Origin: a virus
Lineage: Duplodnaviria; Caudoviricetes
DNA: 27,480 nt
Direction: 5' to 3' (one strand)
IMG/VR virus record: IMGVR_UViG_3300025084_000168
Span: 1-27,480 of that record
Positions 1 through 17,854 of the stretch are shown piece after piece. The notes under the pieces were generated by a model that worked only from the letters and a program-made list of their open reading frames with translations, had not been told where the DNA came from and made no database searches. Positions within the stretch are counted from its first letter, which is position 1; each line of letters opens with the position of its first letter. Made by a program: the position numbers and the translations under genes.

Positions 1-1277
1 GCTTCAGCTGTTGTAGCTAATTCAACAACACCGTCTAATGTATCTGAGGCAGCTCTTACTTTTGTTAAATCTACATCTGCATCGGGAACTGTTATTGTTC
101 TGTCAGTCGTTGGATTTGTTATACTAAAAGTTGTTTCGTGCGCATCTGGAACTGATCCTTCAAATATAAGATTACCTTGTAAAAGAGTATCTCCATCAGA
201 TCTAAAGCTAGCTATTACGTTAGTTCCTCTAAGAGTAGTTACACCTCCACTACCGTGTGTTTCTCCTGATTGTATTATTACCGCTCCCCCAGCTCCATTA
301 CCAGTTGCTCTACCACCAAACAATTGTAAAGCTCCCCCTGCTTTATCTGTGCCAGTAGCATCGCCACCTCTTATATATAAATCTCCTCCTGCATCATCAG
401 TATGTCGTAATCTTTTTATTTGAGCAGCACCGTTGTCATCATCACCAATAACCAGTGACTCTGAGTCGTATGTTAAACCTGATTCAGCTTGAACCGCAGA
501 TGTACCGTTACCTGTTAGTATAGAGTTTGATGCTAAAGTTGTTGCTCCCGTTCCACCTTTAGCTACTGTTACTGTATCAGACAGGGTAGATCCAGCAGCG
601 GTAACAGTTATGTCTCCAGTACCATCAAAGCTTACTCCATTAATATCTCTAGCTGTAGCTAATGCTGTTGCTGTGCCTGCATTACCAGAAACAGATGTAA
701 CATTGGAATTTAATAATGTTGATATACTAGTTAACCCTGTTCCGCCATTACCAACTGCTAGTGTACCAGTAACTCCTATATCAGTAACAGCAGCGCTACC
801 GTCAAAGTTGGCTGAGTCAGTTTCACTAAGTGTTACTTGCAAAGCTCTAGTTGTTTCTAACTTAGTTGCTGTTCCCGCATTGCCACTTACAGTAGTTTGA
901 TCCCCAGTATTAGTACCACTTTGTCCAACTAGGTAGGTTTGATCTATAGCAATACCTCTCCATGCACCTGAAGTTATAGTGCCTACAGCTACAATGTTTG
1001 AAGAACCCTGAAACCCATCTTTTAATCCGTCAGGTGTAACAGCTCTTGTAGCATCTGTACCCGTAGTTGTTTCTGCTGTAGTTGCTAATTCTACTATACC
1101 TTTAGTTGTAGCATCAGCGTCAGGGGCTGCAGATGCAGAAGCTTTTACTATTTTATTATTTGAGTCTAGGCCTAAGCTTCCACCACTAGCAATAGTACCG
1201 CTGTCTATATTTTCTAAATAAACATCGCTTCTAAATCTAGCAATAAAATCTTGTATGTATTGACCTATAAACTTCAT
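1..1277 (-). CDS. Tail fibre protein, 3'-truncated by the window edge (>=425 aa; not in ORF track)
   Basis: ATG at 1277 overlaps the TAA of the upstream gene (TAATG). My manual translation is open to base 1: MKFIGQYIQDFIARFRSDVYLENIDSG...DATTKGIVELATTAETTTGTDATRAVTP...GNAGTATKL...NGGTGLTS...ASDTLDGVVELATTAE. It has two 'G(I/V)VELATTAE' fibre repeats, two 'SGNAGTAT' repeats, GGTG motifs and G/A/T/S-rich composition. Confidence 0.85.
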   Translation of the reverse strand, partial: MKFIGQYIQDFIARFRSDVYLENIDSGTIASGGSLGLDSNNKIVKASASAAPDADATTKGIVELATTAETTTGTDATRAVTPDGLKDGFQGSSNIVAVGTITSGAWRGIAIDQTYLVGQSGTNTGDQTTVSGNAGTATKLETTRALQVTLSETDSANFDGSAAVTDIGVTGTLAVGNGGTGLTSISTLLNSNVTSVSGNAGTATALATARDINGVSFDGTGDITVTAAGSTLSDTVTVAKGGTGATTLASNSILTGNGTSAVQAESGLTYDSESLVIGDDDNGAAQIKRLRHTDDAGGDLYIRGGDATGTDKAGGALQLFGGRATGNGAGGAVIIQSGETHGSGGVTTLRGTNVIASFRSDGDTLLQGNLIFEGSVPDAHETTFSITNPTTDRTITVPDADVDLTKVRAASDTLDGVVELATTAE

Positions 1278-1744
1278 TAAGCGAAATCAACATATTCTAT
1301 TGTTACCTCTTCTCCCTGATCTAGTGCTTTTGCAATAGACGGATAAATCCTCTTATATGCGTTAACGCTTTTACCAACGAACCCATCGCGGAGAATAAGA
1401 TTGTTTTCTTGACTGTCTCCAACGATAAGACACCCAGCAGTGTGCTCGTCAGTGTTTCCAGTATGAATAAGAATATACTCAAAACCAGGAACATCAGTGA
1501 CATGAAGCATACCACGGTGTATACCAGGATATTTTTTATCGTATCTTGCATGAAATCCTCCTTCTTTTCTTAGTTCTATTTTGTACGTACCTGCAGGTAT
1601 TCTAGTTTCACCTTTTACCTTTAATGCTCTTTGTTCATCTTCTAGTGTGTAACATAAAAACCTTTTACCTATGTCTGTATCTTCAAATAACAAACCATGA
1701 GTACAATCTACTTGTGAACTAAATCTTAGTACTTTAAGTTTCAT
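1277..1744 (-). CDS. DUF5675-family protein, candidate endolysin/peptidoglycan peptidase (L,D-transpeptidase-like H...GC motif)
   Basis: Motifs CYTLED, T-RIPAGTY and VPGFEYILIHTGNTDEHTAGCLIVG match the DUF5675 pattern common in Bacteroidota phages. The lytic role is inference. Confidence 0.75.
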   Translation of the reverse strand: MKLKVLRFSSQVDCTHGLLFEDTDIGKRFLCYTLEDEQRALKVKGETRIPAGTYKIELRKEGGFHARYDKKYPGIHRGMLHVTDVPGFEYILIHTGNTDEHTAGCLIVGDSQENNLILRDGFVGKSVNAYKRIYPSIAKALDQGEEVTIEYVDFA

Positions 1745-1745
1745 A

Positions 1746-2111
1746 TTATGCCTTTTTAAATAAACCGTACTCTATCTTTACAGTATCTGTATCTGCTCTA
1801 CACTCAAGTCCTTCAGACGGTGCTAAAGTAAACCATGTAAACTCTCCTGGATGTAATTTACCAAAAGTAGCTGCTGCAGCATCTTGTACATATATAAAGT
1901 TTGTAGAATCTATGTTCTTTATAAACACATAATATGTATTAGAATCAGATGCAGGAACTATTTCGCCCCCTCCTGCTACAGCTGTAGTAATATTTCTTTT
2001 ACTTATTTCTATAGGATCTGTAACATTTAGAGTATCAGAAAGAGTAATGTTGATAGTATCTGATGCAGCAGTTGAGCTGTTCAATGTTAATTTTGTTGAT
2101 AATGTTGCCAT
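1746..2111 (-). CDS. Small beta-rich putative virion protein (paralog A)
   Basis: 121 aa, T/A/S-rich. Clearly similar to the neighbour at 2136-2507 (KLTLxSS, SDxxNxTxxDTLxV, YVFxKN, LxxGEFT). Confidence 0.6.
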   Translation of the reverse strand: MATLSTKLTLNSSTAASDTINITLSDTLNVTDPIEISKRNITTAVAGGGEIVPASDSNTYYVFIKNIDSTNFIYVQDAAAATFGKLHPGEFTWFTLAPSEGLECRADTDTVKIEYGLFKKA

Positions 2112-2135
2112 CTTATTATTATTAAGTTATTATTA

Positions 2136-2507
2136 TTATGCTGCTGCTTGAAATATCATTACTTCTAAAACAGGAGTACCTGTTGCTGCATCGTACACTA
2201 AGTCTTCATCACTACTCCAAGGAAATATTGTAAACTCTCCTGCTCCTAAAGACATTACATCTGCAGAATCAGTTGCTCCTACACGTATATGAATTATCTC
2301 AGCTGCTGTAGTACTTTTATTTTTTAAAAATACATAAGCATCTGTATACCCTGATGCTGTAGCAAATACTGCGGCAGTAGCTGAAGTGACTATTGTTTTT
2401 CTATTTATCTGTCCTAGTACACTTAAAGTATCTGTAACTGTTAAGTTTAAAGAATCACTTGGAGTGTTAGAACTTGTAAGAGTTAATTTTGCTGTTACTG
2501 TTGCCAT
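2136..2507 (-). CDS. Small beta-rich putative virion protein (paralog B)
   Basis: 123 aa, paralog of 1746-2111. Starts 1 nt after the stop of the upstream gene. Confidence 0.6.
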   Translation of the reverse strand: MATVTAKLTLTSSNTPSDSLNLTVTDTLSVLGQINRKTIVTSATAAVFATASGYTDAYVFLKNKSTTAAEIIHIRVGATDSADVMSLGAGEFTIFPWSSDEDLVYDAATGTPVLEVMIFQAAA

Positions 2508-2508
2508 T

Positions 2509-4494
2509 TTATTTTATTATTATTTTATTAGTTATACTTAAATTATCTTTAGAAATCTTAATTAGGTAAAAACCTTTGTTAAGCTCTACGTCTAATACTT
2601 TATTAGCTTCATATACAAGTCTTCCTAACTCATCGTAAACTTTTATATCAACTTCAGAGTTAAAACTGATTAACCCGCTTGATGGATTAGGGTAAGGTAT
2701 TACTCCCATTCTTTCAAACATTGCTATATCTGTAGGACCTGTCCAACCGTCTGCACAATACGCATATAGTCCATCACATCCCTCATCCCATGTTGTATTA
2801 CAACAATAAGGATCTACTGAGATAACCCACTCAAAACACGCATTAGGCACATAGTATACATCACCAGAATAACACCCAGCAGAGTAATAGCAAGTACTGT
2901 CTGCCATGTTAGCTTGTGGATTATAATTAATAGCAGACGGATCAATGCACCCATACAAAGGATAAACACAAGTACCATTATTAGTGTTTGCGTTATCATC
3001 GTAATTAATTGCTGTGCTGTCTGTACATCCATAATAAAAAGGTATGCAACTTCCGTTGTCTGTATTTGCTGTTAAATCATAATTCCACATTGTATTATCA
3101 GTACATCCAAATACTACATCAATACAACTATCATCATCACTATTTGCTAGTGGGTTGTAGTTAAAGGCTGCACCATCGGTACAACCCCAGACGTAAGCAA
3201 TGCATGTACCATCGTCTGTATTCGCTAATGAATCATAGTTTAATGCAGTAACGTCTGTGCAACCATACATATATGATATACATGATCCGTCATCTAAATT
3301 TGCATTAACATTAAAATTAAACATTGTATTGTCTGTACACCCTTCAACAACTTCAACACAAGAACCATCTAACTCTGTGTTTGCTTCAGGATTATAATTC
3401 AAGGCTGTAGAATCCATGCAGCCAAGAACGATAAGTGTAGCGCAGGTTTCGTTATCAAAGTCAGCATCTGCGTTATACTCAATGTAAATTGGATTCGTAC
3501 ATCCTTCAACGTAGTAGCAGCTTTCGTCATCTGTGTTAGCACCATCATTATAATTTAAAGCTGTATCATCAATACAACCAAATATTTTTTCTATACAACT
3601 ATTACCGCAATACGGCATACCTAAGTTTATTGCAAAAGGGATTAAAGGATTTGCAAAACCTCCTGGTTCGCTTATCGTTAAGTGTTCTTCTGAATATAAG
3701 CTATAACCACATTGTACGGATGTAAACTGTGATTGTTGTGTAGTATTAAATTTTACTTCTACGGGCTCTGATATACTTAAATCAAAGGTAAAAGTAGTGT
3801 CAAAACCATCATCAAGAGTAAATATACCTAAAAAGTTGTCACCTTGAAATACCTGTAGAAAAGCTCCAGCCCAACCGTTACCAGCTAAGTCTGTTAATTC
3901 TAAAGTGTAAGAACAACTGTCTACTAATATATTAGTGTTAGCTATACTGTCATAATTAAATGCTTCTTCATCTGTACACCCGTATAGCTTTGGAGTGTAA
4001 CACATACCTGTGTCTAATGTTGCTATTGGTAAAAACTCTACAAAGCTTTCATCCATGCAACCATATATTGGTGGTGGAGGTGCACAATCTTCTACTGTAA
4101 ATCCGTGGTACGCGTAAGTACCAAAGTTAGCTGAATCCATTTCAACTATAGTATCATTACATCTTAGTAGATAGTATGAACCATCTTGCCCACCCCATAA
4201 GCTACCCTGCATACCATCTCCATAAGAATCATATATGTCAAAGTAGTAATCACCATTAGGTACACAAAGCTGTGTTACTTGAGGTGAATAATCTATTATA
4301 TCAGTATAAGGCCCTCCTGTAACTATAGTGTCTAAATTACCATTTAATAAAGCCCAAGATGTTTCTTGTGGGTATTGATCTGGATTTATTACAATGTTTA
4401 AGTATGTTCCATTAGGACATTGAGAAAAAGCAGTTGATAGTGTAAACACTACAACCATAATAAATGCGTATAAAAATTTAGTAAACTTGTTCAT
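2509..4494 (-). CDS. Secreted Cys/Asp-repeat protein with Sec signal peptide and type A T9SS C-terminal sorting domain
   Basis: N-terminus MNKFTKFLYAFIMVVVFTLSTAFS|Q. Bacteroidota-type DQYPQETSW...DSYGDG domain. 11 GC(T/M/I)D-x2-A-x-NY...D(D/N)GxC repeats. C-terminus IPYPNPSSG...VYDELGRLV...LNKGFYLIKI...TNKIIIK matches the YPNP / GxY / KxxxK pattern of TIGR04183-type CTDs. Confidence 0.85.
   Translation of the reverse strand: MNKFTKFLYAFIMVVVFTLSTAFSQCPNGTYLNIVINPDQYPQETSWALLNGNLDTIVTGGPYTDIIDYSPQVTQLCVPNGDYYFDIYDSYGDGMQGSLWGGQDGSYYLLRCNDTIVEMDSANFGTYAYHGFTVEDCAPPPPIYGCMDESFVEFLPIATLDTGMCYTPKLYGCTDEEAFNYDSIANTNILVDSCSYTLELTDLAGNGWAGAFLQVFQGDNFLGIFTLDDGFDTTFTFDLSISEPVEVKFNTTQQSQFTSVQCGYSLYSEEHLTISEPGGFANPLIPFAINLGMPYCGNSCIEKIFGCIDDTALNYNDGANTDDESCYYVEGCTNPIYIEYNADADFDNETCATLIVLGCMDSTALNYNPEANTELDGSCVEVVEGCTDNTMFNFNVNANLDDGSCISYMYGCTDVTALNYDSLANTDDGTCIAYVWGCTDGAAFNYNPLANSDDDSCIDVVFGCTDNTMWNYDLTANTDNGSCIPFYYGCTDSTAINYDDNANTNNGTCVYPLYGCIDPSAINYNPQANMADSTCYYSAGCYSGDVYYVPNACFEWVISVDPYCCNTTWDEGCDGLYAYCADGWTGPTDIAMFERMGVIPYPNPSSGLISFNSEVDIKVYDELGRLVYEANKVLDVELNKGFYLIKISKDNLSITNKIIIK
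2890..4065 (-). repeat. Array of 11 degenerate ~26-28 aa GCTD...NY...DDGSC protein repeats
   Basis: Counted in the translation: GCMDES, GCTDEE, GCIDDT, GCTNPI, GCMDST, GCTDNT, GCTDVT, GCTDGA, GCTDNT, GCTDST, GCIDPS. The last nine are tandem. Boundaries are approximate. Confidence 0.9.
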
Positions 4495-4847
4495 TAAAAT
4501 TTGCTTATTATTAATTCATCAATATATTCTTGTACCTCTTTTCTTGTAGCAGCCATTTTAAAACTTATGTCTGCTTGAAATCTTTTTACTTCTTCACCAT
4601 CATCAAACACTACTATTGTTGGTACAATAGCTATTTCGTATTTAGTTTGATTATCATTTTGTTCTATCAAAAGTGTTTGTCTATCACATTCCTTTAATTT
4701 TGAGAACCAAACTACATCATTAGCTGAATTAAAGTCAGCATTAAAGTGAATTACTTTTACCTGAGAAAAAGCAGTATGCGAGGCTACCAATAAAAATAAT
4801 ACTAACAAGTACATTCCAAATATCTTCCATTCTGCTATCTTTTTCAT
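4494..4847 (-). CDS. Exported thioredoxin-fold protein lacking CXXC
   Basis: Hydrophobic N-terminus ending AFS|Q. VIHFNADFNSAN sits at the position of the thioredoxin F-x-A-x-WCxxC motif. KYEIAIVPTIVVFDDGEEVKRF is the cis-Pro loop and following strands of thioredoxins. Confidence 0.75.
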   Translation of the reverse strand: MKKIAEWKIFGMYLLVLFLLVASHTAFSQVKVIHFNADFNSANDVVWFSKLKECDRQTLLIEQNDNQTKYEIAIVPTIVVFDDGEEVKRFQADISFKMAATRKEVQEYIDELIISKF

Positions 4848-5122
4848 TATCTTAATGCATCAATTTTGTCCTCCATGCGAATCATTCGTTCTTCTAACTT
4901 TTCCACATTTTTCTCTGTATTCTTAATAGACTGACGTATATTAACATCTTTCATATTAAACTCCATTTTAGAAATCTCTGGTTTAGGAAGCTCTTTTGCT
5001 TCTGCTATGTCTGCTTGTAGCGTAAACCACATACCTATTAAAGTTGCCATTGCAAAGCCTATGCCTATTAATGTTTTTACACTTATATTGAACCCTGTTT
5101 CTTCGTTTAGTTCTTTTGCCAT
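4847..5122 (-). CDS. Single-TM membrane protein with C-terminal coiled coil (i-spanin/holin-like topology)
   Basis: TM segment TLIGIGFAMATLIGMWFTL, followed by the heptad-like IRQSIKNTEKNVEKLEERMIRMEDKIDAL. Confidence 0.6.
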   Translation of the reverse strand: MAKELNEETGFNISVKTLIGIGFAMATLIGMWFTLQADIAEAKELPKPEISKMEFNMKDVNIRQSIKNTEKNVEKLEERMIRMEDKIDALR

Positions 5123-5125
5123 TGT

Positions 5126-6163
5126 TTAAAATATTCTGTAGTTTACACCAAATTTAAAATCGTACCATTCTCTATTCCAGTACTTGTTATATTTACCTTC
5201 TATAAAACAACCAACATTTCTGTTTAGGTTGTATCCAAAGATCAATCCTCCTGAGTAGTCATACCACTGTTCTCCATCGTTAAAGTTGTGATATGAATAT
5301 TCACCTCCACCATCATAGTGATAAGGCATTAGGTTACCCCAAGAGTGTAACCAAAAATTCTTTTTGTAATGATAAAAATCAAATCCTACTACCAAAGAGT
5401 ATTGCCATTGATTGTCTAACTCATTCTTTTTCTTTTCTACGTAATCATTTAGCATTTCAGGTATAACAACCTGATTCCATACAGTTGCGTTTTCCGCTAC
5501 TAAATTACCGTTTGGATCTCTATACTCAGATTCGTATACATCTACGCTGTAACCTTCTTCAATTGCTAAACAAGTATAGTGTAGTTGTCCTGAAGCTATC
5601 AACCATTCTTCTAATGGATCAAAACCGTATGGTTCTGCCAATCTTTGTGCAGCTCCAATATTAAATGATAGTTTCTTTTTACCGTTTAATCTTAGTCTTT
5701 GTGTAGATTCAAAATACTCTATGTCAGCAAACCCTTCTTTGATATATGCAACCTTTGCCATCCATACTGGCTTTACATATCTCATAAAGTGTTGTTGATC
5801 TAGGTATTCTATTCCTTCTTGTCTTCTATAGTCTACTTCAAATAAATACTCAAAAGGAGAAAGTCCAATAGTAGCAGCATCTCCATAAGCAGCTTCTGTA
5901 CCATCTTTAAATGTTCTTCTATCCTCGTACCCAAATCTTTTTATCTTACGAATACCTAATGTTAATGAATAGTCAAAAGGGGTTAGAACTGTGTCTACCC
6001 CTAAATAACTATTGTTTACAGAATATATATTTTCATCTGCTAGTGATGTACCACCATTAGCTGCTATGTAAAAAGTAGAAAACTTAAATGGTTTTTTAAG
6101 TTGTGCATCTACTGTATTTGCAAAAAATGCTAAAAATAAAAATATAAAAATTCTTAATTTCAT
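5126..6163 (-). CDS. Putative outer-membrane beta-barrel protein with signal peptide
   Basis: Signal peptide MKLRIFIFLFLAFFANTVDA|Q. Aromatic-rich amphipathic strands (YSLTLGIR, YSLVVGFDFY, YSGGLIFGY, CFIEGKY). C-terminal FKFGVNYRIF ends in Phe, resembling a BAM beta-signal. Confidence 0.7.
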   Translation of the reverse strand: MKLRIFIFLFLAFFANTVDAQLKKPFKFSTFYIAANGGTSLADENIYSVNNSYLGVDTVLTPFDYSLTLGIRKIKRFGYEDRRTFKDGTEAAYGDAATIGLSPFEYLFEVDYRRQEGIEYLDQQHFMRYVKPVWMAKVAYIKEGFADIEYFESTQRLRLNGKKKLSFNIGAAQRLAEPYGFDPLEEWLIASGQLHYTCLAIEEGYSVDVYESEYRDPNGNLVAENATVWNQVVIPEMLNDYVEKKKNELDNQWQYSLVVGFDFYHYKKNFWLHSWGNLMPYHYDGGGEYSYHNFNDGEQWYDYSGGLIFGYNLNRNVGCFIEGKYNKYWNREWYDFKFGVNYRIF

Positions 6164-6167
6164 TTTA

Positions 6168-6569
6168 CTATTCTATAATCTTGTCAATATTAATAATTTG
6201 CTCTCCAGTAATATCTGTTGGTAAACAGTCTTCTGGTATTGCATGTAATTCAATTTCAGTTTCTTCAAGTAAAAGTTTATCTACTTCTTCTAACTGATCT
6301 TTTCTAGATTGTACTAGTTCTGCATTCTCTTTTTCAAGGTCAGCAATCTCATCTTTTTTATCTTGATTCATAAGAATCTGAACTTTCTGAGATAATTCTA
6401 AAAAGTCATCTGAAGGCTTACTAGCTTCTTCAATATCTTTAAGTTCTTCCTGTATGATTCTAATGTTCTTAGAAACTAACAGTCCTAACTTAACTCCTTT
6501 TAGTTTTTGTACTGAGGTTAATCCGTTGAATAACTCAACAAACTCACCATTTTTCATTTTTACTTTCAT
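6168..6569 (-). CDS. Charged helical protein, possible tail-fibre assembly chaperone
   Basis: 133 aa, E/K/L-rich coiled coil directly downstream of a fibre gene. Function is inferred from position. Confidence 0.45.
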   Translation of the reverse strand: MKVKMKNGEFVELFNGLTSVQKLKGVKLGLLVSKNIRIIQEELKDIEEASKPSDDFLELSQKVQILMNQDKKDEIADLEKENAELVQSRKDQLEEVDKLLLEETEIELHAIPEDCLPTDITGEQIINIDKIIE

Positions 6570-6594
6570 TGTCTATATAATTGATTGGTTAATA

Positions 6595-8058
6595 TTAGCT
6601 ATTATTTATCACTAAAAAGTGAATTTTACTTGCTGTTGTAGAAGTTGCTCCTGTTGCCGCTGGATTATGTATACTTATTTCACAATGTCCATCATCGACA
6701 CCAACTAAAGCTGCAGTAAGTTGTGCGTTATTTGTTGTATTATCATCTTGCACTGTTATCAAAATTACAGAATCTGCTTGTATTGTACTATTTGTAAATG
6801 TAAACTCTGCGTTAGTCGCAGCATTTAAAGCTACTGCTGCTAGTGTAATTACACCAGAAGTAGTGTTTAGTGTTACTCCTGTAGTATGATCACTTGATTG
6901 AGTTACTGTACCACTATTAGTATGTACAATACCTTTTGTAGCTCCAGTAATAATTAAATTACCTGCATTTACTGTAACATCTTGTGCAGTATCTGCAGTT
7001 AATGCTGTAGTTAGTGCTCCTCCCGCAGTATATGTTCTTAAAAGAACACTACCTGCAGTACCACTAGCTGCGTCTCCTGCTGCTAATGTTAATGAACCAC
7101 CCGCGCCTGAACCTGTACCTGCACCTGCTAGTAAACTTAAAGCTCCACCTGCAAAGTTACCCCCACCTGCTGTAGCTGAAGATATACTTAATGCAGCTCC
7201 TGCCACACCTGAAGCAGATGTAACGTTACCAATTGTGTATGTTGATTGATATGCTGCAGTATTACCAATAGTTATTGCTGATGCAGTAGATCCTTGTATG
7301 TTTAATTGACCTGTAGCTTCTCCTGTAGTTATAGTAGAACCAGCGTCATTAAGAATTACTCTACCGTTAGTATGTACATATATACCTCTGTCAGATCCGT
7401 CTCCACTAATGTAATTTGTATTTAGATCAATATTATAAGAAGCTGTATCTAGGTTTGCAGTAAGTGTAGTCAAAGATGCTGCTAAAGTAATTGCTCCTGC
7501 ACCATTAGTAACAGTCATATTAGTACCAGCTGTAAGTCTTGCTACTGATGGATAACCATTAGTTGCATTACCTATAAGTAGCTGTCCATCTGTAGACATT
7601 GCTGTTGTAGCTGCAATCGTATCATCTGCACTTGCATACAATAAAGATCCTTTAGTTATTGTAGATAATCCTGTACCTCCGTTTGTAACTCCACATTCTC
7701 CTGTAACAGTTCCTGTAAAATCTATGCCAGATATAAATCCTGATGTTGCATTATTACAAAGACTAAGATCTATTCCTGCTTCTAGTACAGTTAATACAAC
7801 ATTATTAGAAGTTGTTGCTACTGTTAACAGTCCTGTATCTCCAGATGCTATTCCTTTAAATACAATTTGATTTTTGTTTGTAAGAGTTGCACTTGTATAT
7901 ATAGTTTCAGAACTAGTTCCTGCTGTAGATACTGTAGGATATAAACTAGTTAGTTGAAACTTTCTTGCCGCTTTTGTACTTGAGTTAGCTACTAATAAAA
8001 AATCTGTAGCTAATGCGTTTGTTTTTGAAAGCGTTGATAATGATGTTATTTCTGCCAT
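6595..8058 (-). CDS. Tail fibre / receptor-binding protein
   Basis: T/A/G/S-rich 487 aa. Motifs VTNGGTGLST, GQLLIG, LTAGTNMTVTNGAGAITL and Gly-rich GGALSLLAGAGTGSGAGG repeats. C-terminal GTVTQ...TTGVTLN beta domain. Confidence 0.8.
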   Translation of the reverse strand: MAEITSLSTLSKTNALATDFLLVANSSTKAARKFQLTSLYPTVSTAGTSSETIYTSATLTNKNQIVFKGIASGDTGLLTVATTSNNVVLTVLEAGIDLSLCNNATSGFISGIDFTGTVTGECGVTNGGTGLSTITKGSLLYASADDTIAATTAMSTDGQLLIGNATNGYPSVARLTAGTNMTVTNGAGAITLAASLTTLTANLDTASYNIDLNTNYISGDGSDRGIYVHTNGRVILNDAGSTITTGEATGQLNIQGSTASAITIGNTAAYQSTYTIGNVTSASGVAGAALSISSATAGGGNFAGGALSLLAGAGTGSGAGGSLTLAAGDAASGTAGSVLLRTYTAGGALTTALTADTAQDVTVNAGNLIITGATKGIVHTNSGTVTQSSDHTTGVTLNTTSGVITLAAVALNAATNAEFTFTNSTIQADSVILITVQDDNTTNNAQLTAALVGVDDGHCEISIHNPAATGATSTTASKIHFLVINNS

Positions 8059-8073
8059 TGTATTTTTATTTTA

Positions 8074-11000
8074 TTATTCGTCTCCAAAAGAAACTCCATT
8101 GTTAGTTAATGATGATCCACCTATTGTGAAGTCATCTGATACTTCTGTATTCTGTTGTGTTTCCTGTAAGTAAGGAGGAATTCCACAATCTTTGCAATAG
8201 CTTCTCGCAAAGCTAATAAATTTTTCTAAATAATCCGAATTATCTGCAGGGGCCGCTACATTTGTACAAAGCTTCCATCCTGTAGTTACAGTATTAGTAG
8301 ATATAGAGTTAAGTGGATCTATATCAAGACCACTACTAGATACTGCTATAAATATTTTTCCATCTCTCTGCACAGAAGATCCTATCCCTAAAGAAAGGGC
8401 TACTACTGGGCTCCATATTATTGCTCCTCCCTCTGTCCAAACTTCTTCGCAATTTGTAATTACATCGCTAAGAGCTGGAGAACCAGAATCAGAACAGTTA
8501 TATATACAAGGTAATCCTCTCACACTTAGTATCTCTTGAATGATAATCATCTTCCAAGCTTCCATTGTAGAGCAGTCATCTGCTAAACCTGTAAGAAGTT
8601 TAGTGTAAAATCTATTACCTGATCTGCTAATACATTCTGCATTATAATCTAGTATTTCGTTTATAGATGAAGGTATACAAGCTGGTATTACTGATGTTCC
8701 AGCTGTACCAGGATTATCTGTTGGATATTGACAACAGCTATTATTATCATTACATGGATATGTTGCAAAAGCATCAAAGTTAACAGCTGTACTATCTGTA
8801 CAACCTGATACTAAAATTGGAGTACAGCAATCTACACTGTAGGTTCCATCAATACAAGGACATTCACCATTACAATCTAAACATGGATATGTACAAGAGT
8901 TATCATCATAACCTGCAGATGCATTATAATTTTCAGCATTAGGGTCAGTACATCCATATATTACTGGATCTACATCTTCATTACAATCATCTTTAGATAT
9001 AAGAACTGAGTCATTAAAACTTTCGTTACAATTAACATTACTAACGTTAACAAGTCCTGCATTATTAGTATATGCATCTGTAGTAAATATAACACTTAAA
9101 TTCCAAACTCCTGGATTTAAGTTTAATGTATGAGTTGGATTTGTCGCAGCCTCTAAATACTCTCCTGAGCCTGGTATCCCAAATCCTCCTGCTCCTAATA
9201 TTCCTAGTCCCCCAGGCATATAACTACCAGTGTAAATAGTTTGCCCTGTAGAATTAGTTGAAGTAGCAAGTATATAATAGTATACACCTAATGGATTATC
9301 AATACTATTATTAAGTTCTGTTACACTTGGTATTGTTATTGTTACTGATCCTGGTGCTGTATAATCACAAGGTTCTCCGTTTGAATCTAAAGTAGTATAG
9401 CTTGTAGGAGCATTAGTAGATGTAATGCCAAGAGTATAACCAGAATCATTTACAAATGTATTTAATTCATCACAGTCTGTAGGGTCATCTCCAGCACAAT
9501 TTTGAATACACTCTGCTTCTGTTGCATAGCCTTCAACTGCATCTGCTTCATACTGACAATTTCCTGGAGTCTTACATATCCATTTACCTAACTCTGGATA
9601 AATACAAAGAGAATTATCAGCTATGGTTGCTGCCGCATTATAGTTAATGGCAGTTATATCCATACATCCTACAATATCTTCTTCTTCTTCGTCATATGTA
9701 CAAAGATTATTATCTGATATAACATTTTCTGTACCAACTGGGCAACAGTAGTTATTTGCTAGAATATCTGTACACTCTCTACTACTTGGAGTATCAAAAA
9801 CACAATCATTTATTAAATCAATTTCCTCTTGACTTAAAACATATGGCTCAGATTGGTAGGTATATTCCCACACATTAAAAGTACCAAAATTATAAGAATA
9901 TGATGTAGAAACTAAACCACCATGTTGCGATAGAAGATTAGCACTAAGACTAACACCTGCATTAGAATTAGGATTAAGAAAATTACTTAAAGACGACGGA
10001 CTTGTAATTTCAAACCCATCTGCAAATACAAAAGTAGTATTTACTATAATAAATTGTGTCTCTATGGTGTTTACATTATCACCATTAGAATTTATATTTA
10101 CGTTTCCTTGGTAATACGTAGGATCAGTGGTATTTCCTATTGCCTCAAAATCTACAGAATACGGTAGATACCCGACATTGTTAGTATTATCATGACAAAA
10201 TATTTCTGAAAATATATAAAATTCAAGAGTATTAGAACTACGAGCTTGATTAAAAGCTGCAGGGCCTACGAACGTTCCTGCGTTTTCTCCCTGCGTAAAA
10301 GTAAATCCATTTTGAGCAGCATTCATTAATGCTGGATTTGTATCTAAGGCATTTTGATAACTAAAAATTATAGAAGGGCCATTTACTAATGAATCTGCAC
10401 ATTCAAACGTAGGATTTAAAATAATCTCACCAGTACAGTCTTCAGTGTCAGTATTATCATAGTTACAACTACCATCACTAAAAGTAGCGCTTTCGTTATA
10501 GTTATTTGCTTCTGGATCTGTACATCCTCCCTGTGTTACAACAGCGGGTCTTGTTATAACATAACACTGTTCAACTTCATCATCTCCGTCTAAAGTACCA
10601 TCATTGTTATATTGTATAACAGTAACATATGTTCCAGGACCTAACCCTGTTACCTCTACAGAACCTCCATTACTATTAGTAGAAGTATCTACTAAGGTAG
10701 CGTTAGAAGTTAAAAAATTTAAAGTACTTGCACCGGTATTCAATGCATCAGTATAACCAGCTCCATAATCTTGAGCAGATATATTTAATCTGTATGTTTT
10801 ATACGTGTAAGGATTAGCTTGATTACTCGTATCAAAATACTCTGATGTGCTAAATACATATTCTTCTTGATATGCTGCATAGTATATAGCGTATGTTGGA
10901 AAAATTAAAGTTGGAATAGTTAAAGTACCATTATCAATATCTCCTCCAACTGGAGTTGAGCTTGCAGCAGTTGCTGTGCTTGGGGAATTAACCAACACCC

Positions 11001-12342
11001 AATCATTTGTAAAAGTATTTCTACCTGACGATTCTAATAAACCAGTTGTAGCATTACAAAATATACAAAGCTCGTCTAAGTCATTAGTAGCTCCGCTATC
11101 AGTATTTATAGCAGAAGCAGTTTTACACCCGTAGGTATTATCTGGATTAGTACCTCCACCTTTTAAAGGTACTGTAAAAAGTATAGAAGATTTACATCCG
11201 TTAGAATCTGTTACTTCTATTTCATAAGTACCTGCGTATAATGATGAAATAGTAAATGAATCTTCAGTTTGTGTTGTATTAGAAGTACTAAAAGCTGTTC
11301 CTGCGGCATTAGCATCATTTAATTCATAATCATCTACAACTACTGTATAATTAGCAACTCCGTTAGCTACAGTAAAACCTGCTGTACCGTTAGCTATATT
11401 TGCACTTGCATCTCCAATACTCCCTGTAGTTACACTAAAGCCTTCACAGCCTACAGTACAACATAGTGCACCTTGAAGCACACTGTTATTAATTATAGTA
11501 GAAGTAAGTGTAGTACCATCGCAAGCCTGTGCGTGCGCACTCCCATCATCTGTACAAGGAAAAGAATTATCTTCACACCCTATAAGCATGTAATTTGCAG
11601 CTGCAGGATCTTTACAAATAAAAATTTCTGGCAGTCCACCAGTGTCAAGAATATCTATAACATTTATCTCTCCAAAGATTAAAGGCCCTTTAATATCTCC
11701 TGCAGATGCAGCTACAACTGGAGAAGCCAATATAAATAAAGATTGTGGAGTAGATGTTCCTTTAAATTTACCTAGCGTATCAGAAGATTCGTCTTTAAGT
11801 TCATACCTAATATTATTTAAAAAACTATTTTGTAGTGAGGTTGATGCAATGTATGCAAAAGCTCCTGATGATAAATAATAAAAATCAGATCTATCACTAG
11901 TATCTAAATATTCCTGTCTTGATGACGGATAAATTACAGTTTGTCTTTGTTGACTCTCTCTTGGGTATTCTAAAAGGTCTACAAAATCATATGTATTAAG
12001 TTTTGTATTTGGAGTAACAGAAAAAGCTCTAGTTAAAGTTTCAAATGGTACAGCTAAAATATTATTAGAGGTAGGAACTCCTATACGTCCTGTAATAGTA
12101 TCTCTACTTTCAAATAGTAAATTATAATAAATTTCTGATGATGATACAGTATTTGTAATACGTATAACTATCTCACTGTTACCTTCAGATAAAATACTTC
12201 GAGTTTCAGTAAATTCAATTTTTTGATCTCCAAAATCAACTTTCGCAATAGGATTCTGGTATCCTGATATAAGAACCAAAAATACTGATCCAGTTGAGTC
12301 TCTAAGACATTTACTAGTATGAAAAGTGTTTAATGTAGCCAT
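8074..12342 (-). CDS. Large Cys-rich mosaic virion-associated protein (tail-hub-like C-terminus; SprB-like, GCTD and CBM5/12-like modules), ~1422 aa
   Basis: The likely start is the ATG at 12342, overlapping the upstream TAA (MATLNTF...). No signal peptide. Contains ~7 GCTD-type repeats, GTYEIEVTDSNGC, a W...G..V...GKIF.A...P...W module and a terminal YCKDC. Confidence 0.65.
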   Translation of the reverse strand: MATLNTFHTSKCLRDSTGSVFLVLISGYQNPIAKVDFGDQKIEFTETRSILSEGNSEIVIRITNTVSSSEIYYNLLFESRDTITGRIGVPTSNNILAVPFETLTRAFSVTPNTKLNTYDFVDLLEYPRESQQRQTVIYPSSRQEYLDTSDRSDFYYLSSGAFAYIASTSLQNSFLNNIRYELKDESSDTLGKFKGTSTPQSLFILASPVVAASAGDIKGPLIFGEINVIDILDTGGLPEIFICKDPAAANYMLIGCEDNSFPCTDDGSAHAQACDGTTLTSTIINNSVLQGALCCTVGCEGFSVTTGSIGDASANIANGTAGFTVANGVANYTVVVDDYELNDANAAGTAFSTSNTTQTEDSFTISSLYAGTYEIEVTDSNGCKSSILFTVPLKGGGTNPDNTYGCKTASAINTDSGATNDLDELCIFCNATTGLLESSGRNTFTNDWVLVNSPSTATAASSTPVGGDIDNGTLTIPTLIFPTYAIYYAAYQEEYVFSTSEYFDTSNQANPYTYKTYRLNISAQDYGAGYTDALNTGASTLNFLTSNATLVDTSTNSNGGSVEVTGLGPGTYVTVIQYNNDGTLDGDDEVEQCYVITRPAVVTQGGCTDPEANNYNESATFSDGSCNYDNTDTEDCTGEIILNPTFECADSLVNGPSIIFSYQNALDTNPALMNAAQNGFTFTQGENAGTFVGPAAFNQARSSNTLEFYIFSEIFCHDNTNNVGYLPYSVDFEAIGNTTDPTYYQGNVNINSNGDNVNTIETQFIIVNTTFVFADGFEITSPSSLSNFLNPNSNAGVSLSANLLSQHGGLVSTSYSYNFGTFNVWEYTYQSEPYVLSQEEIDLINDCVFDTPSSRECTDILANNYCCPVGTENVISDNNLCTYDEEEEDIVGCMDITAINYNAAATIADNSLCIYPELGKWICKTPGNCQYEADAVEGYATEAECIQNCAGDDPTDCDELNTFVNDSGYTLGITSTNAPTSYTTLDSNGEPCDYTAPGSVTITIPSVTELNNSIDNPLGVYYYILATSTNSTGQTIYTGSYMPGGLGILGAGGFGIPGSGEYLEAATNPTHTLNLNPGVWNLSVIFTTDAYTNNAGLVNVSNVNCNESFNDSVLISKDDCNEDVDPVIYGCTDPNAENYNASAGYDDNSCTYPCLDCNGECPCIDGTYSVDCCTPILVSGCTDSTAVNFDAFATYPCNDNNSCCQYPTDNPGTAGTSVIPACIPSSINEILDYNAECISRSGNRFYTKLLTGLADDCSTMEAWKMIIIQEILSVRGLPCIYNCSDSGSPALSDVITNCEEVWTEGGAIIWSPVVALSLGIGSSVQRDGKIFIAVSSSGLDIDPLNSISTNTVTTGWKLCTNVAAPADNSDYLEKFISFARSYCKDCGIPPYLQETQQNTEVSDDFTIGGSSLTNNGVSFGDE

Positions 12343-12857
12343 TAGCAATTACATCCGCAGTGACCGCCACACATTTCGACAGCCTTGTTATATTTCTTTT
12401 CTGCATTAGCTATTACAGCTTTTACTGATACTAAAGATCCAGCTCCTGAACTAGTAGCTAACTCTGCCTCTGCAGTTTTTAATAATAAATAAATTTTTTG
12501 AGCTGAAACTAAGTCCTCTGAGCATTTACTACACTCACAGTTACAGTCAAGCAAGTCTTCCATTTTTTTGGCTAAACAACATAATACATCACAAGAAAGC
12601 ATTACAGCTCCTATCTGAGAAACCTCAGAGTTTGCTAAATGCTCTACAGTAAAAATACCACTGCCTCCATTTGCTGAAGAAATACCTAAACTTGAAATAG
12701 ATACTACACGAGTATTAGAAGCTCCTCCCGGAAATGAATATGTATACTCATTACCATTATCACTAATTTTTATTTGATTAGTGGCTCCTACATCTGAGTT
12801 GGTAACTGTTACTACAATCTTTTTACAATCAGAAGTTGTTGATATGTTTAATGCCAT
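12342..12857 (-). CDS. Cys-rich putative tail-hub/structural protein (probable Zn binding)
   Basis: Motifs CDVLCC, CNCECSKC and C-terminal CGGHCGCNC. Its position after the capsid-auxiliary genes matches the tail-hub gene position in crAss-like phages (synteny inference). Confidence 0.55.
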   Translation of the reverse strand: MALNISTTSDCKKIVVTVTNSDVGATNQIKISDNGNEYTYSFPGGASNTRVVSISSLGISSANGGSGIFTVEHLANSEVSQIGAVMLSCDVLCCLAKKMEDLLDCNCECSKCSEDLVSAQKIYLLLKTAEAELATSSGAGSLVSVKAVIANAEKKYNKAVEMCGGHCGCNC

Positions 12858-12875
12858 GTTGTTTTAAATTTTTAT

Positions 12876-12915
12876 AAAAAAAGACCTACAGGGGAAACAA
12901 GTCCCCTGTGAGTCT
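12876..12915 (-). terminator. Rho-independent terminator closing the head gene block
   Basis: Minus strand reads AGAC-TC-ACAGGGGA-cttgtt-TCCCCTGT-AG-GTCT followed by a T-run (TTTTTT). Confidence 0.85.
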
Positions 12916-12934
12916 AATTAAATTAAATATCTAC

Positions 12935-13312
12935 TTACGCAGATATGTTTGAGATATAGTACTCAACAAATACTTCAACTACACCAGCAGTTAAAGCCGC
13001 TGTTGCAATTACAAACTGAATACCTGTTGAAGATGTAGTCTTGTCCACAACAGTATGTTCTGTTACGTCTTCATCATCAAAAGCTCCATTATCAAATGCT
13101 GTTGCAGCTTTTAAAGTAACTCCTCCCGTAGTAAGAGCTAAAGTTGCTGAACCATCACTTGTCATTGCTGTAGTAACTACAGAATAACATCTAACGATAA
13201 CTGCATTATCAGGGATAATTGCAGAGTTAGCTGGTACAATAGTACTTGCAGCGCCACCATCGACTGCGAAGTCGTATTTAGCGTGTGCTGTCATTAATTT
13301 TGGATGTGCCAT
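12935..13312 (-). CDS. Putative head decoration/cement protein
   Basis: 125 aa beta-rich, YDFAVDGGA...IPDNAVIV...TAALTAGVVEVFVEY. Last gene of the capsid block before the terminator. Confidence 0.55.
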   Translation of the reverse strand: MAHPKLMTAHAKYDFAVDGGAASTIVPANSAIIPDNAVIVRCYSVVTTAMTSDGSATLALTTGGVTLKAATAFDNGAFDDEDVTEHTVVDKTTSSTGIQFVIATAALTAGVVEVFVEYYISNISA

Positions 13313-13337
13313 TTTATTTTATTTTTAAATATTAATA

Positions 13338-14255
13338 TTATAAGATAACAGGTGCAAAATTAGCAGAAGCTAAATACCCGTTAAGTTGATTTTCAAAAGC
13401 TACACCATCGTTTTCGTCAATTGCAATATAGATTTCTATTAAGTTATCTACACCGTTAATTCCTGAAGTTGTACTTCCGTCCTTACTAGCTACAATATGG
13501 TACATGTCATAAACATTACTTGTAACACTGTGAAGCGTTGGTTGAACTGGTAACTCAACTCTGTTGTAGTATCCAAATCCAGAACCTTGTAATTCTTCTT
13601 CAAATTCTCTGATGTAAAATCCATCTCCAAATCCTCTAGAACCTGCAGTTTGATAAGTTATAGTATCAGCTGTTCCGTTACCATTACCATCAATAGCTTC
13701 AAATGCAAAGTCTATGTGAACTAGCTCAGATTGAACTGATCCATCAGCTAAACTTTCACCTTTCTTAAAGCAAGTAAAATCAATACTTGTACCGTTGTTA
13801 GTAATACTATTTACCCAGTAAGGTAAGTCAGCATTAATAGCTGTAGTAAAAGCTGTACACTGTGTAGTTGGAGTTGCACCCGCAGCTACAGTAATTGTGT
13901 AAGATTTAAAGTTAAATGGTTCTGCACCATTAGTTAAGTTAATTACTTTAAGAGTATGCTGTCCTGCCGCAACTGCGTTAGTTGCTAATGCAATTCTAGC
14001 TACTTCTGCAGTTTGAGCTGCACCTGCTTTACCGCCGTATGCTACAACGTTTTTTCCTTTAATCCAAGGGCTTGCAATTTGCTTATCCCCTGTTCCTTGT
14101 ACAAATCTGATGCTATCAGAATCTGAAATTGTATCACCTGGTACAAGACTTGTATTCCCGTCAGCTGATAATTTTTGTATGTCAATAGATCCAGCAGCTA
14201 ATAAGTTATTTGAATAACTTGCAGCTGTACCATCTCCGATTAATAATTGTCTCAT
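13338..14255 (-). CDS. Conserved crAss-like structural protein (auxiliary capsid protein candidate)
   Basis: 305 aa. RGFGDG...EEELQGSGFGYYNR...YDMYHI pattern. Third gene downstream of the MCP, matching crAss-like synteny. Confidence 0.6.
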   Translation of the reverse strand: MRQLLIGDGTAASYSNNLLAAGSIDIQKLSADGNTSLVPGDTISDSDSIRFVQGTGDKQIASPWIKGKNVVAYGGKAGAAQTAEVARIALATNAVAAGQHTLKVINLTNGAEPFNFKSYTITVAAGATPTTQCTAFTTAINADLPYWVNSITNNGTSIDFTCFKKGESLADGSVQSELVHIDFAFEAIDGNGNGTADTITYQTAGSRGFGDGFYIREFEEELQGSGFGYYNRVELPVQPTLHSVTSNVYDMYHIVASKDGSTTSGINGVDNLIEIYIAIDENDGVAFENQLNGYLASANFAPVIL

Positions 14256-16411: not shown

Positions 16412-17854
16412 TTAGGAAGCTACACATTGAATATCCAGAGAAGTATCAAATCTACGTAAGCAGATACCCGCTGTCTTCAACATGTGTACACTTGCACCAT
16501 CAACATCAGATGCTCTTGCGTCTGATCCAGAGAATCCTCTAGGTACAACAGAACCAGCAACACACCATCTCATCATCTCGCGACCTTTCTTTGAGATCAT
16601 TGTCAAGTTAGCTTGTCCGTCATAGTTAGACTGGTCAACAAATACCATACGGTAAGACTCCATAGAGTAACCAGTTACTGGGTGCTTCTCACGAGCTTGT
16701 GCAACAGGACCATGATCAAATAGTGGAATTTTTACCACATTGATTACGTGTCCGTCTACGTGCTCATAAGTTGTGAAATATCCAGTCAAACCTAAGTTAC
16801 GACCAGAACCTGTGATAAATCTGTTCTCACCACCTACTTTGAAAGTGTTACCTGCAAAGTGAGATTTAAGAGCCTCATCAAATTCACGCGCTCCACCAGT
16901 ACCAGTATACAAAGTAATCTGCTTCTGATTAGCGTCAGTCATTTGATAGAATAAATCACCAATAATATTTTTCAACTTAGACTCAGTCATAGTTGAGTAA
17001 GTGTCAGTATTTACGATTTGCTCGAATAAACCTGGTCCAACAATTACTGGTTGGCCATTCTCATCTTTCATGAAAGTTGATCCGTTAGAGTCGTAAGTTT
17101 TCTGTCCGTACCAGTAGTACATCTCACACTCTTCTTTAAAGTCAAGCATGTGTTGGTACTCTTCGTAATCCATCCATAACTTAGTAGAAGATCCACCTTT
17201 AGTTGGTAAAGTAAACTCCGCTACGAAGTCTTTAGCATTACCTGACATGTGGTAAGATTTTCTTACAGTTGTGATTTTGTTACGAACTTTACCTGGTGCT
17301 TGCCAGTTAGAAGCGTTACCTCTTGAGAAGTCAACACCTACTGGTGCATATAATTGCGCCCAAAGATCTCCTGCATTGAATCCTCCTGAAAGAACCGCTG
17401 TAGCAGCTGGGTTTACTAATTGTAAAGTATATTCCCAACCAGAACCACCTGCGTAAGGCTTAGGCTCTGCCATAATACGCGCTAGCTCACCTTTTGAGTT
17501 TACTAATACGTAAGGGAAAATAAATCGTTTATCAGGGAATACCAACGTAAATGTTGATCCTCCTTGACCTAAAGATGCTCCTGCATTTGCCACAGCAACT
17601 GGACGTGTTCTCAATTTGTGAGTAGCCACACGATATTCATACTCTAATCTGTCGATTGATTGAACGTTACCAGCTCCTTCTGTTAAGAAAGATAATGGAA
17701 AACGCTTATCATCCTTACCAGACAAGTGTGTGATAATCGGAGAAAGTTCAGTTGGTTTTGACAAAAGAGCATTTGCCAGACTATTCATGTCTGTCATTTG
17801 TGAATCGTTATAAAACGTTTTTTGAACGCTTATATTTGTTCCGTTTAAGCTCAT
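16412..17854 (-). CDS. Major capsid protein (crAss-like, HK97 fold)
   Basis: 480 aa. TDMNSLANAL, RFPLSFLTEG, SRGN, RNKITTVRKSY, GPGLFEQI, LYTGTGG, GYFTTYEHVDGHVI, SYRMVFVD. Follows portal and scaffold. Confidence 0.9.
   Translation of the reverse strand: MSLNGTNISVQKTFYNDSQMTDMNSLANALLSKPTELSPIITHLSGKDDKRFPLSFLTEGAGNVQSIDRLEYEYRVATHKLRTRPVAVANAGASLGQGGSTFTLVFPDKRFIFPYVLVNSKGELARIMAEPKPYAGGSGWEYTLQLVNPAATAVLSGGFNAGDLWAQLYAPVGVDFSRGNASNWQAPGKVRNKITTVRKSYHMSGNAKDFVAEFTLPTKGGSSTKLWMDYEEYQHMLDFKEECEMYYWYGQKTYDSNGSTFMKDENGQPVIVGPGLFEQIVNTDTYSTMTESKLKNIIGDLFYQMTDANQKQITLYTGTGGAREFDEALKSHFAGNTFKVGGENRFITGSGRNLGLTGYFTTYEHVDGHVINVVKIPLFDHGPVAQAREKHPVTGYSMESYRMVFVDQSNYDGQANLTMISKKGREMMRWCVAGSVVPRGFSGSDARASDVDGASVHMLKTAGICLRRFDTSLDIQCVAS

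Follow-up and report, generated by a model that had tools for sequence, protein, structure and literature searches.

Three genes of a marine crAss-like phage encode a predicted outer-membrane beta-barrel, an inner-membrane coiled-coil protein (the coil protein), and an exported thioredoxin-fold protein, and this trio travels together through crAss-like, 28-kb siphovirus-type, and T4-like phages. The genes lie in IMG/VR record IMGVR_UViG_3300025084_000168, the whole of which (27,480 bases; completeness estimate, 32%) is the window analyzed here. With a fourth gene, encoding a predicted type IX secretion system (T9SS) cargo, they form a tight minus-strand block whose core is the trio, not the quartet. 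A role of some kind in lysis is probable for the trio. Tentatively, with a probability of about one in three, we propose that it acts as a relay across the host envelope that would tune the time of lysis, in the manner of the T4 proteins T and RI. The four genes, with features of their products, are as follows (aa, amino acids; pLDDT, predicted local distance difference test score).

5126 to 6163, minus strand: 345-aa outer-membrane beta-barrel, core of the trio (Sec signal at residues 1-20, Gln at +1, C-terminal Phe; 12 predicted strands)
5855 to 5944, minus strand: barrel residues 74-103, a conserved segment between strands 2 and 3 (low pLDDT; candidate docking site)
5411 to 5635, minus strand: barrel residues 177-251, a 75-residue helical insertion after strand 7 (predicted secondary structure)
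4847 to 5122, minus strand: 91-aa inner-membrane protein with one transmembrane helix (about residues 17-35), a Pro linker, and a 35-residue periplasmic coiled coil (from alignments; predicted N-in, C-out)
4494 to 4847, minus strand: 117-aa exported thioredoxin-fold protein without CxxC (Sec signal at residues 1-28, Gln at +1)
2509 to 4494, minus strand: 661-aa Cys-rich repeat protein bearing both a Sec signal and a sorting domain of T9SS type A, in an exchangeable slot
2512 to 2694, minus strand: T9SS type A C-terminal domain, residues 601-661 (TIGR04183, 39.3 bits, cutoff 23; PF18962, 35.7 bits, cutoff 27)

All four open reading frames (6163-5126, 5122-4847, 4847-4494, and 4494-2509; 345, 91, 117, and 661 aa) lie where a preliminary description of this DNA had placed them. 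Their junctions, read from the letters, are also as it claimed: a 4-nt gap upstream, a 3-nt gap, TAATG overlaps at 4847 and 4494, and a 1-nt gap downstream. These overlaps carry little weight, because other operon junctions are equally tight; the DUF5675 and tail-fiber genes, for example, likewise overlap by TAATG at 1277. Envelope-targeting leaders were found only in the module, as had been proposed: the best 11-residue hydropathy was 2.9 to 3.1 in three of its proteins and 2.2 in the 91-aa protein, against 0.4 to 1.8 in the 17 other window proteins checked. Cleavage sites were placed heuristically, by hydropathy and conservation. The proposed Gln at +1 recurred in 107/115 aligned barrels and 114/115 thioredoxin-like proteins; Gln at this position is a pointer to Bacteroidota. 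The predicted locations in inner membrane, periplasm, outer membrane, and cell surface were supported as predictions. Nor does the module look like a chimera or a host insert: its GC content and that at third codon positions (GC3) fall within the range of its neighbors, its order recurs in many contigs, and both outer junctions are bridged by single contigs from public runs (5534-7572 links the barrel with genes upstream of it, and 1455-3031 the cargo with genes downstream), the cargo junction also in two other studies.

A search with the barrel returned 473 matching IMG/VR stretches of one clade, that of the near relatives, and the best 80 of these 473 were fetched together with 73 thioredoxin loci and 6 loci from GTDB; removal of 34 loci on contigs already included gave 123 loci, in which near-identical contigs were not collapsed. 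The trio was present in 62/62 near-relative contigs that extend 5 kb or more to either side, with a lysin family in the flank in 50 and a holin-like gene in 42. Co-occurrence of all four genes in related phages, as the preliminary description had it, was borne out in 60 of these 62 contigs. The gene order of 100 four-gene loci was that of the window in 81, with the barrel last in 16 and the cargo first in 3. Neighboring genes lay within 30 nt of each other in 92/100 loci for coil and thioredoxin, 46/84 for barrel and coil, and 54/97 for thioredoxin and cargo, and the coil and thioredoxin genes stay together even where the barrel moves. A staphylococcal-nuclease-family gene (PF00565) is often inserted within the module (L064:11468-11836 and similar), and one 67-kb record (G016) has two differing module copies at its two ends (L182:789-4225 and L185:7062-10150), through either duplication or an assembly artifact.

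The trio extends well beyond these relatives. A profile search yielded 443 distant barrel representatives at 50% identity; four of them were used to fetch loci, and the counts take in only loci that run on for 3 kb or more behind the barrel. In a clade of ∼28-kb phages with a lambda-type portal, the trio was present in 23/23 counted loci (35 fetched) and the cargo in none. The usual order there is barrel, a 60-aa gene with two transmembrane helices (16/23), coil, thioredoxin, M15 peptidase, and a holin candidate with three transmembrane helices, with the lysin directly after the thioredoxin gene in 22/23 loci. A second distant clade carried the trio in 60/65 counted loci (80 fetched) and the window's cargo in none; a lysin was nearby in 58. 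This clade includes contigs whose capsid protein is 79 to 83% identical to that of the window and whose barrel is about 30 to 35% identical; therefore, exchange seems to involve the whole module at once. T4-like phages had the trio in 4/4 counted loci, with a lysin in the flank of none and a Cys-repeat lipoprotein following. In another large phage, an amidase gene directly follows the thioredoxin gene. The fixed four-part system of the preliminary description is thus not supported in that form: the cargo is missing from the 28-kb clade and replaced in all 65 loci of another.

Covariation within the trio was analyzed by mutual information with average product correction (MI-APC) on 115 paired rows, an alignment that is too shallow (effective number, 65) and too closely tied to kinship for the scores to count. 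The top coil-thioredoxin score was 5.4, versus 4.4 to 5.0 in 12 within-clade shuffles. On the same shallow, kinship-tied rows, barrel-thioredoxin reached 6.2 versus 5.6 to 5.8 (4 shuffles) and barrel-coil 4.9 versus 4.7 to 5.2. Distance correlations among the three families (0.64 to 0.79) reflect shared descent only.

The trio lies beside lysis genes in most genomes. A lysin was within 9 nt of it in 10/10 small near-complete genomes and at most 5 kb away in 9/13 near-complete genomes of 60 to 120 kb (random expectation, 0.17 each), 10 of which showed a crAss-type capsid, portal, or terminase. As controls in the 60- to 120-kb genomes, the terminase was within 5 kb of the trio in 0/10 and the portal in 0/7. 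The lysins belong to four unrelated families: DUF5675, M15, amidase_2, and a PHROG-endolysin-like family. Of the roles listed in the preliminary description, a link to lysis gains most from this gene context, and surface display fits the cargo slot only.

Each trio protein has features consistent with its predicted place in the envelope. The 345-aa protein models as a membrane barrel, as had been predicted: AlphaFold2 gave a mean pLDDT of 79, a predicted template modeling score (pTM) of 0.73, and 12 long strands with in-out alternation. An even number of amphipathic closing strands, a signal peptide, and a C-terminal aromatic residue are all present, and the last residue is F in the window barrel and in 79/118 distant members. 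The best Foldseek matches in the PDB were NanC, FapF, PcoB, and NalP, at a query-normalized template modeling score (TMq) of about 0.3 to 0.35; matches among viral models were one homologue and porin-like proteins, and the three best ESM Atlas clusters were entirely viral. No family match for the barrel was found in Pfam, PHROG, or NCBIfam, and a PDB sequence search with the barrel profile gave 0 matches. Homologues form 3,682 clusters at 90% identity (E ≤ 0.001). E80, G88, and E90, within the segment between strands 2 and 3, are invariant in 115 sequences; in the model this segment would face the periplasm or the lumen. By strand counting, the 75-residue insertion would be extracellular, and distant barrels carry in this region a D-x-N-x-N-G type motif, which we take to be calcium binding. 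In 35/119 barrels, the plain signal peptide is replaced by a lipobox leader (lipobox Cys, P-K-K-C-C, Gln). On a quick tree of 66 barrels, this leader required 16 changes and clustered no more than shuffled labels. Examples of this portable leader are at L013:10001, L070:2224, L153:2915, the L052 cargo gene, and others; apart from barrels, one thioredoxin and one cargo carry it. Three carriers encode further exported proteins of 132 to 139 aa that resemble small outer-membrane barrels (L198:11527-11946, L204:13805-14203, and L214:12636-13046).

For the 117-aa protein, AlphaFold2 (pLDDT, 88) and Foldseek confirm a thioredoxin fold, with the cis-Pro characteristic of it. The preliminary description had called it a thioredoxin without a redox motif, and this stands: its thioredoxin profile matches show the CGPCR stretch deleted rather than mutated. 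CxxC was found in 0/109 distant thioredoxin-like members, so the active site of an oxidoreductase is lacking. P76 and the final residue, F117, are invariant in 115 sequences. A count of 7,993 thioredoxin homologues among 7,997 scored may include ordinary thioredoxins and was not used.

The coil protein has the type II inner-membrane topology and periplasmic coiled coil of two-component spanins, and E54, K58, and R63 are invariant in 115 sequences; only 1 of 115 members matched an Rz-like PHROG (E = 6e-4). In the T4-like clade, a motif binding cyclic di-GMP (c-di-GMP) is predicted at the cytoplasmic N terminus (NF053729, 44.9 bits versus a cutoff of 38 in the one protein scanned), and an N-terminal motif of this type is visible in three T4-like coil proteins:

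L254:8099-8770, T4-like phage: coil protein fused to MshE-type c-di-GMP-binding motif
L256:8092-8766, T4-like phage: the same fusion
L258:9948-10634, T4-like phage: the same fusion

An MscS beta-domain gene lies directly upstream of the barrel in this clade. A 169-kb T4-like carrier (G076; L371:17963-19021 and L365) has, in addition to a gene for a Volactin/MreB-like protein, sugar-nucleotide and glycosyltransferase genes in a long block.

By its sorting signal, the 661-aa protein is a predicted phage-borne T9SS type A cargo; phage T9SS cargo as such is already known. Its C-terminal domain scored above the TIGR04183 cutoff, as had been expected, and its Sec signal has a hydropathy of 2.9 and an AFS-Q site (heuristic). 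A pattern search counted 35 Cys and nine GCxD repeats. The canonical tail was present in 77/91 complete cargo proteins; the remaining 14 have a shorter tail of unproven type. Such other tails (5 of the 14 GCxD-type tails and eight proteins of the low-density lipoprotein [LDL] receptor-like type, LDLa) gave no match in Pfam or NCBIfam and aligned weakly with the canonical domain (E = 0.003; probability, 10%); for these reasons we do not call them T9SS signals. In 65/65 loci of one clade, the slot instead holds an unrelated protein, likewise exported, with an LDL-receptor-like Cys head, an acidic repeat stalk, and a short tail (e.g., L265:9539-10456 and L296:8024-8806).

In the proposed relay, the barrel would register a cue outside the cell, such as further phage adsorption or contact with a cell or particle. 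The thioredoxin-fold protein, free in the periplasm, would shuttle between two conserved elements, the barrel's periplasm-side segment and the coil protein's helix. The coil protein, anchored in the inner membrane, would then hold back or release the holin, as in T4, where the exported antiholin RI targets holin T at its periplasmic domain. At the outer end, the T9SS-tagged Cys-rich protein may serve as a surface part that is optional and can be exchanged. We favor this relay narrowly over a substitute for spanins, a close rival as is surface display or exclusion, because it covers the position in the lysis cassette, the outer loop domain, the T/RI-like pairing, the c-di-GMP input, the short coil, and the loss in close relatives. 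The 75-residue insertion and the invariant loop residues of the barrel would be needless for membrane fusion and hence point to regulation rather than mechanics. The c-di-GMP motif of the T4-like clade points the same way, as do the coil and thioredoxin genes, whose closeness matches the T4 pairing of a type II membrane protein with a Sec-exported partner.

The loss in relatives was seen among 80 capsid-anchored relatives, of which 25 contigs exceeded 20 kb and 16 of these had the barrel. Six of the nine barrel-less contigs were read: three end before the slot, and three (G093, G094, and G110) cover it without the module. G093 and G094 are near-identical to each other, with a capsid protein 96% identical to that of the window. 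Three relatives thus lack the trio where it would be expected, which would suit an accessory; these are fragments (24 to 33% complete), however, and the trio could therefore lie elsewhere in the genome. All three carry small genes with a transmembrane helix plus coil before DUF5675, whose products match the coil profile over the transmembrane helix only and are read as analogues.

Several observations weigh against the relay. The barrel occurs in 8/8 capsid-anchored relatives at least 60% complete and so looks more like a core gene than an accessory. Family scans and Foldseek gave no sequence or fold similarity to T, RI, RIII, or any antiholin. The lysin was 28 to 41 kb from the trio in 3/24 genomes (G014, G029, and G076), the clade with the c-di-GMP motif among them, and the commonest holin candidate was more than 20 kb away in 5/13 larger genomes; the holin candidates are themselves weak matches (PHROG 3427; PF11351 below cutoff). 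The relay also leaves the opening of the outer membrane unexplained, and the small genomes yielded no lipoprotein of spanin type, with the barrel the sole outer-membrane candidate in G052, the one listed gene by gene.

This last point favors a close and only slightly less likely alternative, in which the trio replaces the spanin: the coil protein would be the i-spanin, the barrel the outer-membrane anchor, and the thioredoxin-fold protein an adaptor, together removing the outer membrane once the wall is cut. A heuristic all-frame scan for lipobox patterns detected no lipoprotein of gene size in any of the 10 small genomes. In the window, all frames of the coding strand were likewise without one, except for one match inside the gene for a 1424-aa protein, so an o-spanin is lacking by this measure. 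The gene run directly behind the barrel in the 28-kb clade also suits a spanin substitute, and the lipobox leaders imply that the barrel can be a lipoprotein, as an o-spanin is. The topology of the coil protein, N-in with a single transmembrane helix and a periplasmic coiled coil, matches that of i-spanins as given in the available part of a spanin survey (PMC6139136). That part of the survey counts 91/677 phages without a recognizable spanin, and its Table 10 lists as spanin-less the isolated Bacteroidota phages Croceibacter P2559S/Y and Bacteroides B124-14; a Crassvirales review, as far as its available text goes, says of lysis only that spanins and lysins appear to be involved (PMC10136315).

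A phage without a spanin need not have the trio, however: spanin-less Bacteroidota isolates exist, as listed in the available part of the survey, and the window's barrel was found in 0/50,697 GenBank phage records. Likewise, no lipoprotein was found in the slot of the trio-less G093, G094, and G110. The isolates and these relatives together weaken the case for the trio as an obligatory spanin substitute. In the 13 larger genomes, the lipobox scan picked out the barrel itself six times and the cargo once, as well as three longer lipoproteins and, in two genomes, small lipoproteins: a 62-aa protein in G003, far from the trio, and a 70-aa Cys/Pro-containing protein in G034 (L204:8645-8857), just before the barrel and the only o-spanin-like gene adjoining the trio. 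Periplasm width is the yardstick for a bridge, and the periplasmic part of the coil protein, at only 56 residues, is short for one. Nor would a spanin substitute account for the barrel's outer loop domain, for the c-di-GMP motif, or for the cargo at the surface.

An unlikely, though close, rival holds that the module remodels the surface of the infected cell apart from lysis (superinfection exclusion, receptor masking, decoy, or adhesion) and that lysis genes are neighbors because both are late and membrane related. The genuine T9SS signal on a Cys-rich repeat protein suits this possibility, as do the unrelated exported Cys-rich proteins that fill the cargo slot across clades like variable surface proteins, the cargo's repeats in the 1424-aa virion-region protein, and the lysin 40 kb from the trio in a T4-like genome. 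For the T9SS cargo of a Cryophage, the available text proposes competition or exclusion (PMC7468147). However, in the 23 cargo-less loci of the 28-kb clade, the trio is wedged between lysis genes, and display needs neither an inner-membrane coil nor a periplasmic partner. It is highly improbable that the proteins belong to the virion or serve DNA ejection, or that the block came about by insertion of host DNA or as an assembly chimera, even though it lies between tail-region genes and the cargo's repeats recur in the 1424-aa protein, because the proteins carry signal peptides with a conserved Gln at +1, the trio is common to podovirus-, siphovirus-, and myovirus-type genomes and is therefore unlikely to be a virion part, the junctions are bridged in public runs, and GTDB (185,579 species) held only six module loci, all on contigs of metagenome-assembled genomes with phage-type neighbors. 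The six GTDB loci bear six different labels, one of them an archaeon, and the contigs look like misbinned phage.

The window is a fragment of a marine crAss-like phage: crAss-type capsid, portal, and terminase are all present by Pfam and PHROG matches. On the minus strand, the terminase is followed by head and tail genes, then by the four module genes, two proteins of 121 to 123 aa, DUF5675, and the tail fiber. The features around the module are as follows.

16412 to 17854, minus strand: crAss-type major capsid protein (PF23898, E = 8e-82)
20662 to 22932: portal (PHROG match; the portal/terminase pair matches PHROG 6547 and 6681)
23240 to 25066: terminase (PHROG match, of the same pair)
1277 to 1744, minus strand: DUF5675 protein, candidate endolysin (C82/L,D-peptidase-like; PF18925, E = 7e-28), 765 nt downstream of the module
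1746 to 2507, minus strand: two paralogous beta-rich proteins of 121 to 123 aa, of no known family; one to five copies near the module in most crAss-like carriers
8074 to 12348, minus strand: 1424-aa virion-region protein with five GCxD repeats as in the T9SS cargo and no signal peptide; relatives reach 3,459 to 4,619 aa
27162 to 27437, minus strand: phage co-chaperonin GroES (family matches)

DUF5675 is treated as a C82-like, structure-based lysin candidate in the available part of a preprint (bioRxiv 10.64898/2026.04.11.717860). A promoter scan of positions 1 to 13500 found 47 sites versus 58.9 expected, and the same region has one strong terminator-like site, at 12909-12888; none bounds the module. 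Half or more of the window's sampled words were contained in 14 public DNA runs, labeled marine or viral metagenome. Contigs from four RNA runs were mostly 90 to 95% alike over the module genes and so cannot show expression. The window's barrel and thioredoxin matched nothing in the 50,697 GenBank phage records.

How Bacteroidota phages pass the outer membrane, and whether marine phages time lysis by host or phage density, are open questions in the field. Taken as a whole, it is possible but doubtful that abundant uncultured ocean phages of three virion types share a three-protein device that spans the envelope from an outer-membrane barrel to the cytoplasm and reads outside cues as well as, in one clade, the c-di-GMP level of the host. 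Such a device would set or carry out lysis with no need of spanins, and a swappable T9SS-exported surface protein would be its outer sensor. If true, either lysis reading would describe a new kind of lysis component. The trio is widespread, as its barrel clusters attest, yet absent from the GenBank phage records searched. At 1.7 kb, and with endolysin and holin in 28-kb genomes, it is small enough for a synthetic cassette.

We found no published description of this gene set in the literature searched, whose coverage left out subscription journals and preprint supplements. NanC/KdgM, FapF, and NalP are 12-stranded outer-membrane barrels, and by Foldseek the trio barrel is like them in size and shape; identity is at most 10%, however, and its insertion and periplasm-side segment have no counterpart in them. 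The module cargo resembles the T9SS type A cargo of a Cryophage (PMC7468147) and of crAss-like contigs (PMC6949934) as a phage sorting-domain gene that varies among relatives. Those cargoes are glycan-active or BACON proteins, in contrast, and the available parts of the two papers describe no barrel, coil, or thioredoxin partner. The disruptin gp28 of phiKT (bioRxiv 10.1101/515445) is a precedent for non-spanin disruption of the outer membrane and Lcc6 of LambdaSo (bioRxiv 10.1101/2024.01.23.576932) for extra lysis factors, but both are, in the text available, single small peptides with neither barrel nor exported globular partner.

The two nearest systems are the lambda spanins and T4 lysis inhibition. 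Like Rz/Rz1, as the available part of the survey presents them (PMC6139136), the trio places an N-in coiled-coil protein with a single transmembrane helix among lysis genes and next to a gene for an outer-membrane product. Unlike them, its outer part is an integral barrel rather than a short lipoprotein, the set always includes a third protein, which is soluble, and the coil is short, that of the window having no periplasmic Cys. T4 lysis inhibition, in the available text of its description (PMC8385771), pairs a type II membrane protein, holin T, with the Sec-exported antiholin RI; lysis inhibition in N4 is a related system (bioRxiv 10.1101/2025.11.12.688109, available part). The trio shares with T/RI, in topology only, a membrane protein with a periplasmic domain, a small Sec-exported partner, and a tie to lysis genes. 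It differs in that the partner has a thioredoxin fold, that an outer-membrane barrel and a surface protein come in addition, and that nothing similar to T or RI was detected. The trio thus belongs neither with the spanins, having no o-spanin lipoprotein, nor with the T4 antiholins, to which it has no homology, while in layout it resembles both, and the function we give it is a proposed one.

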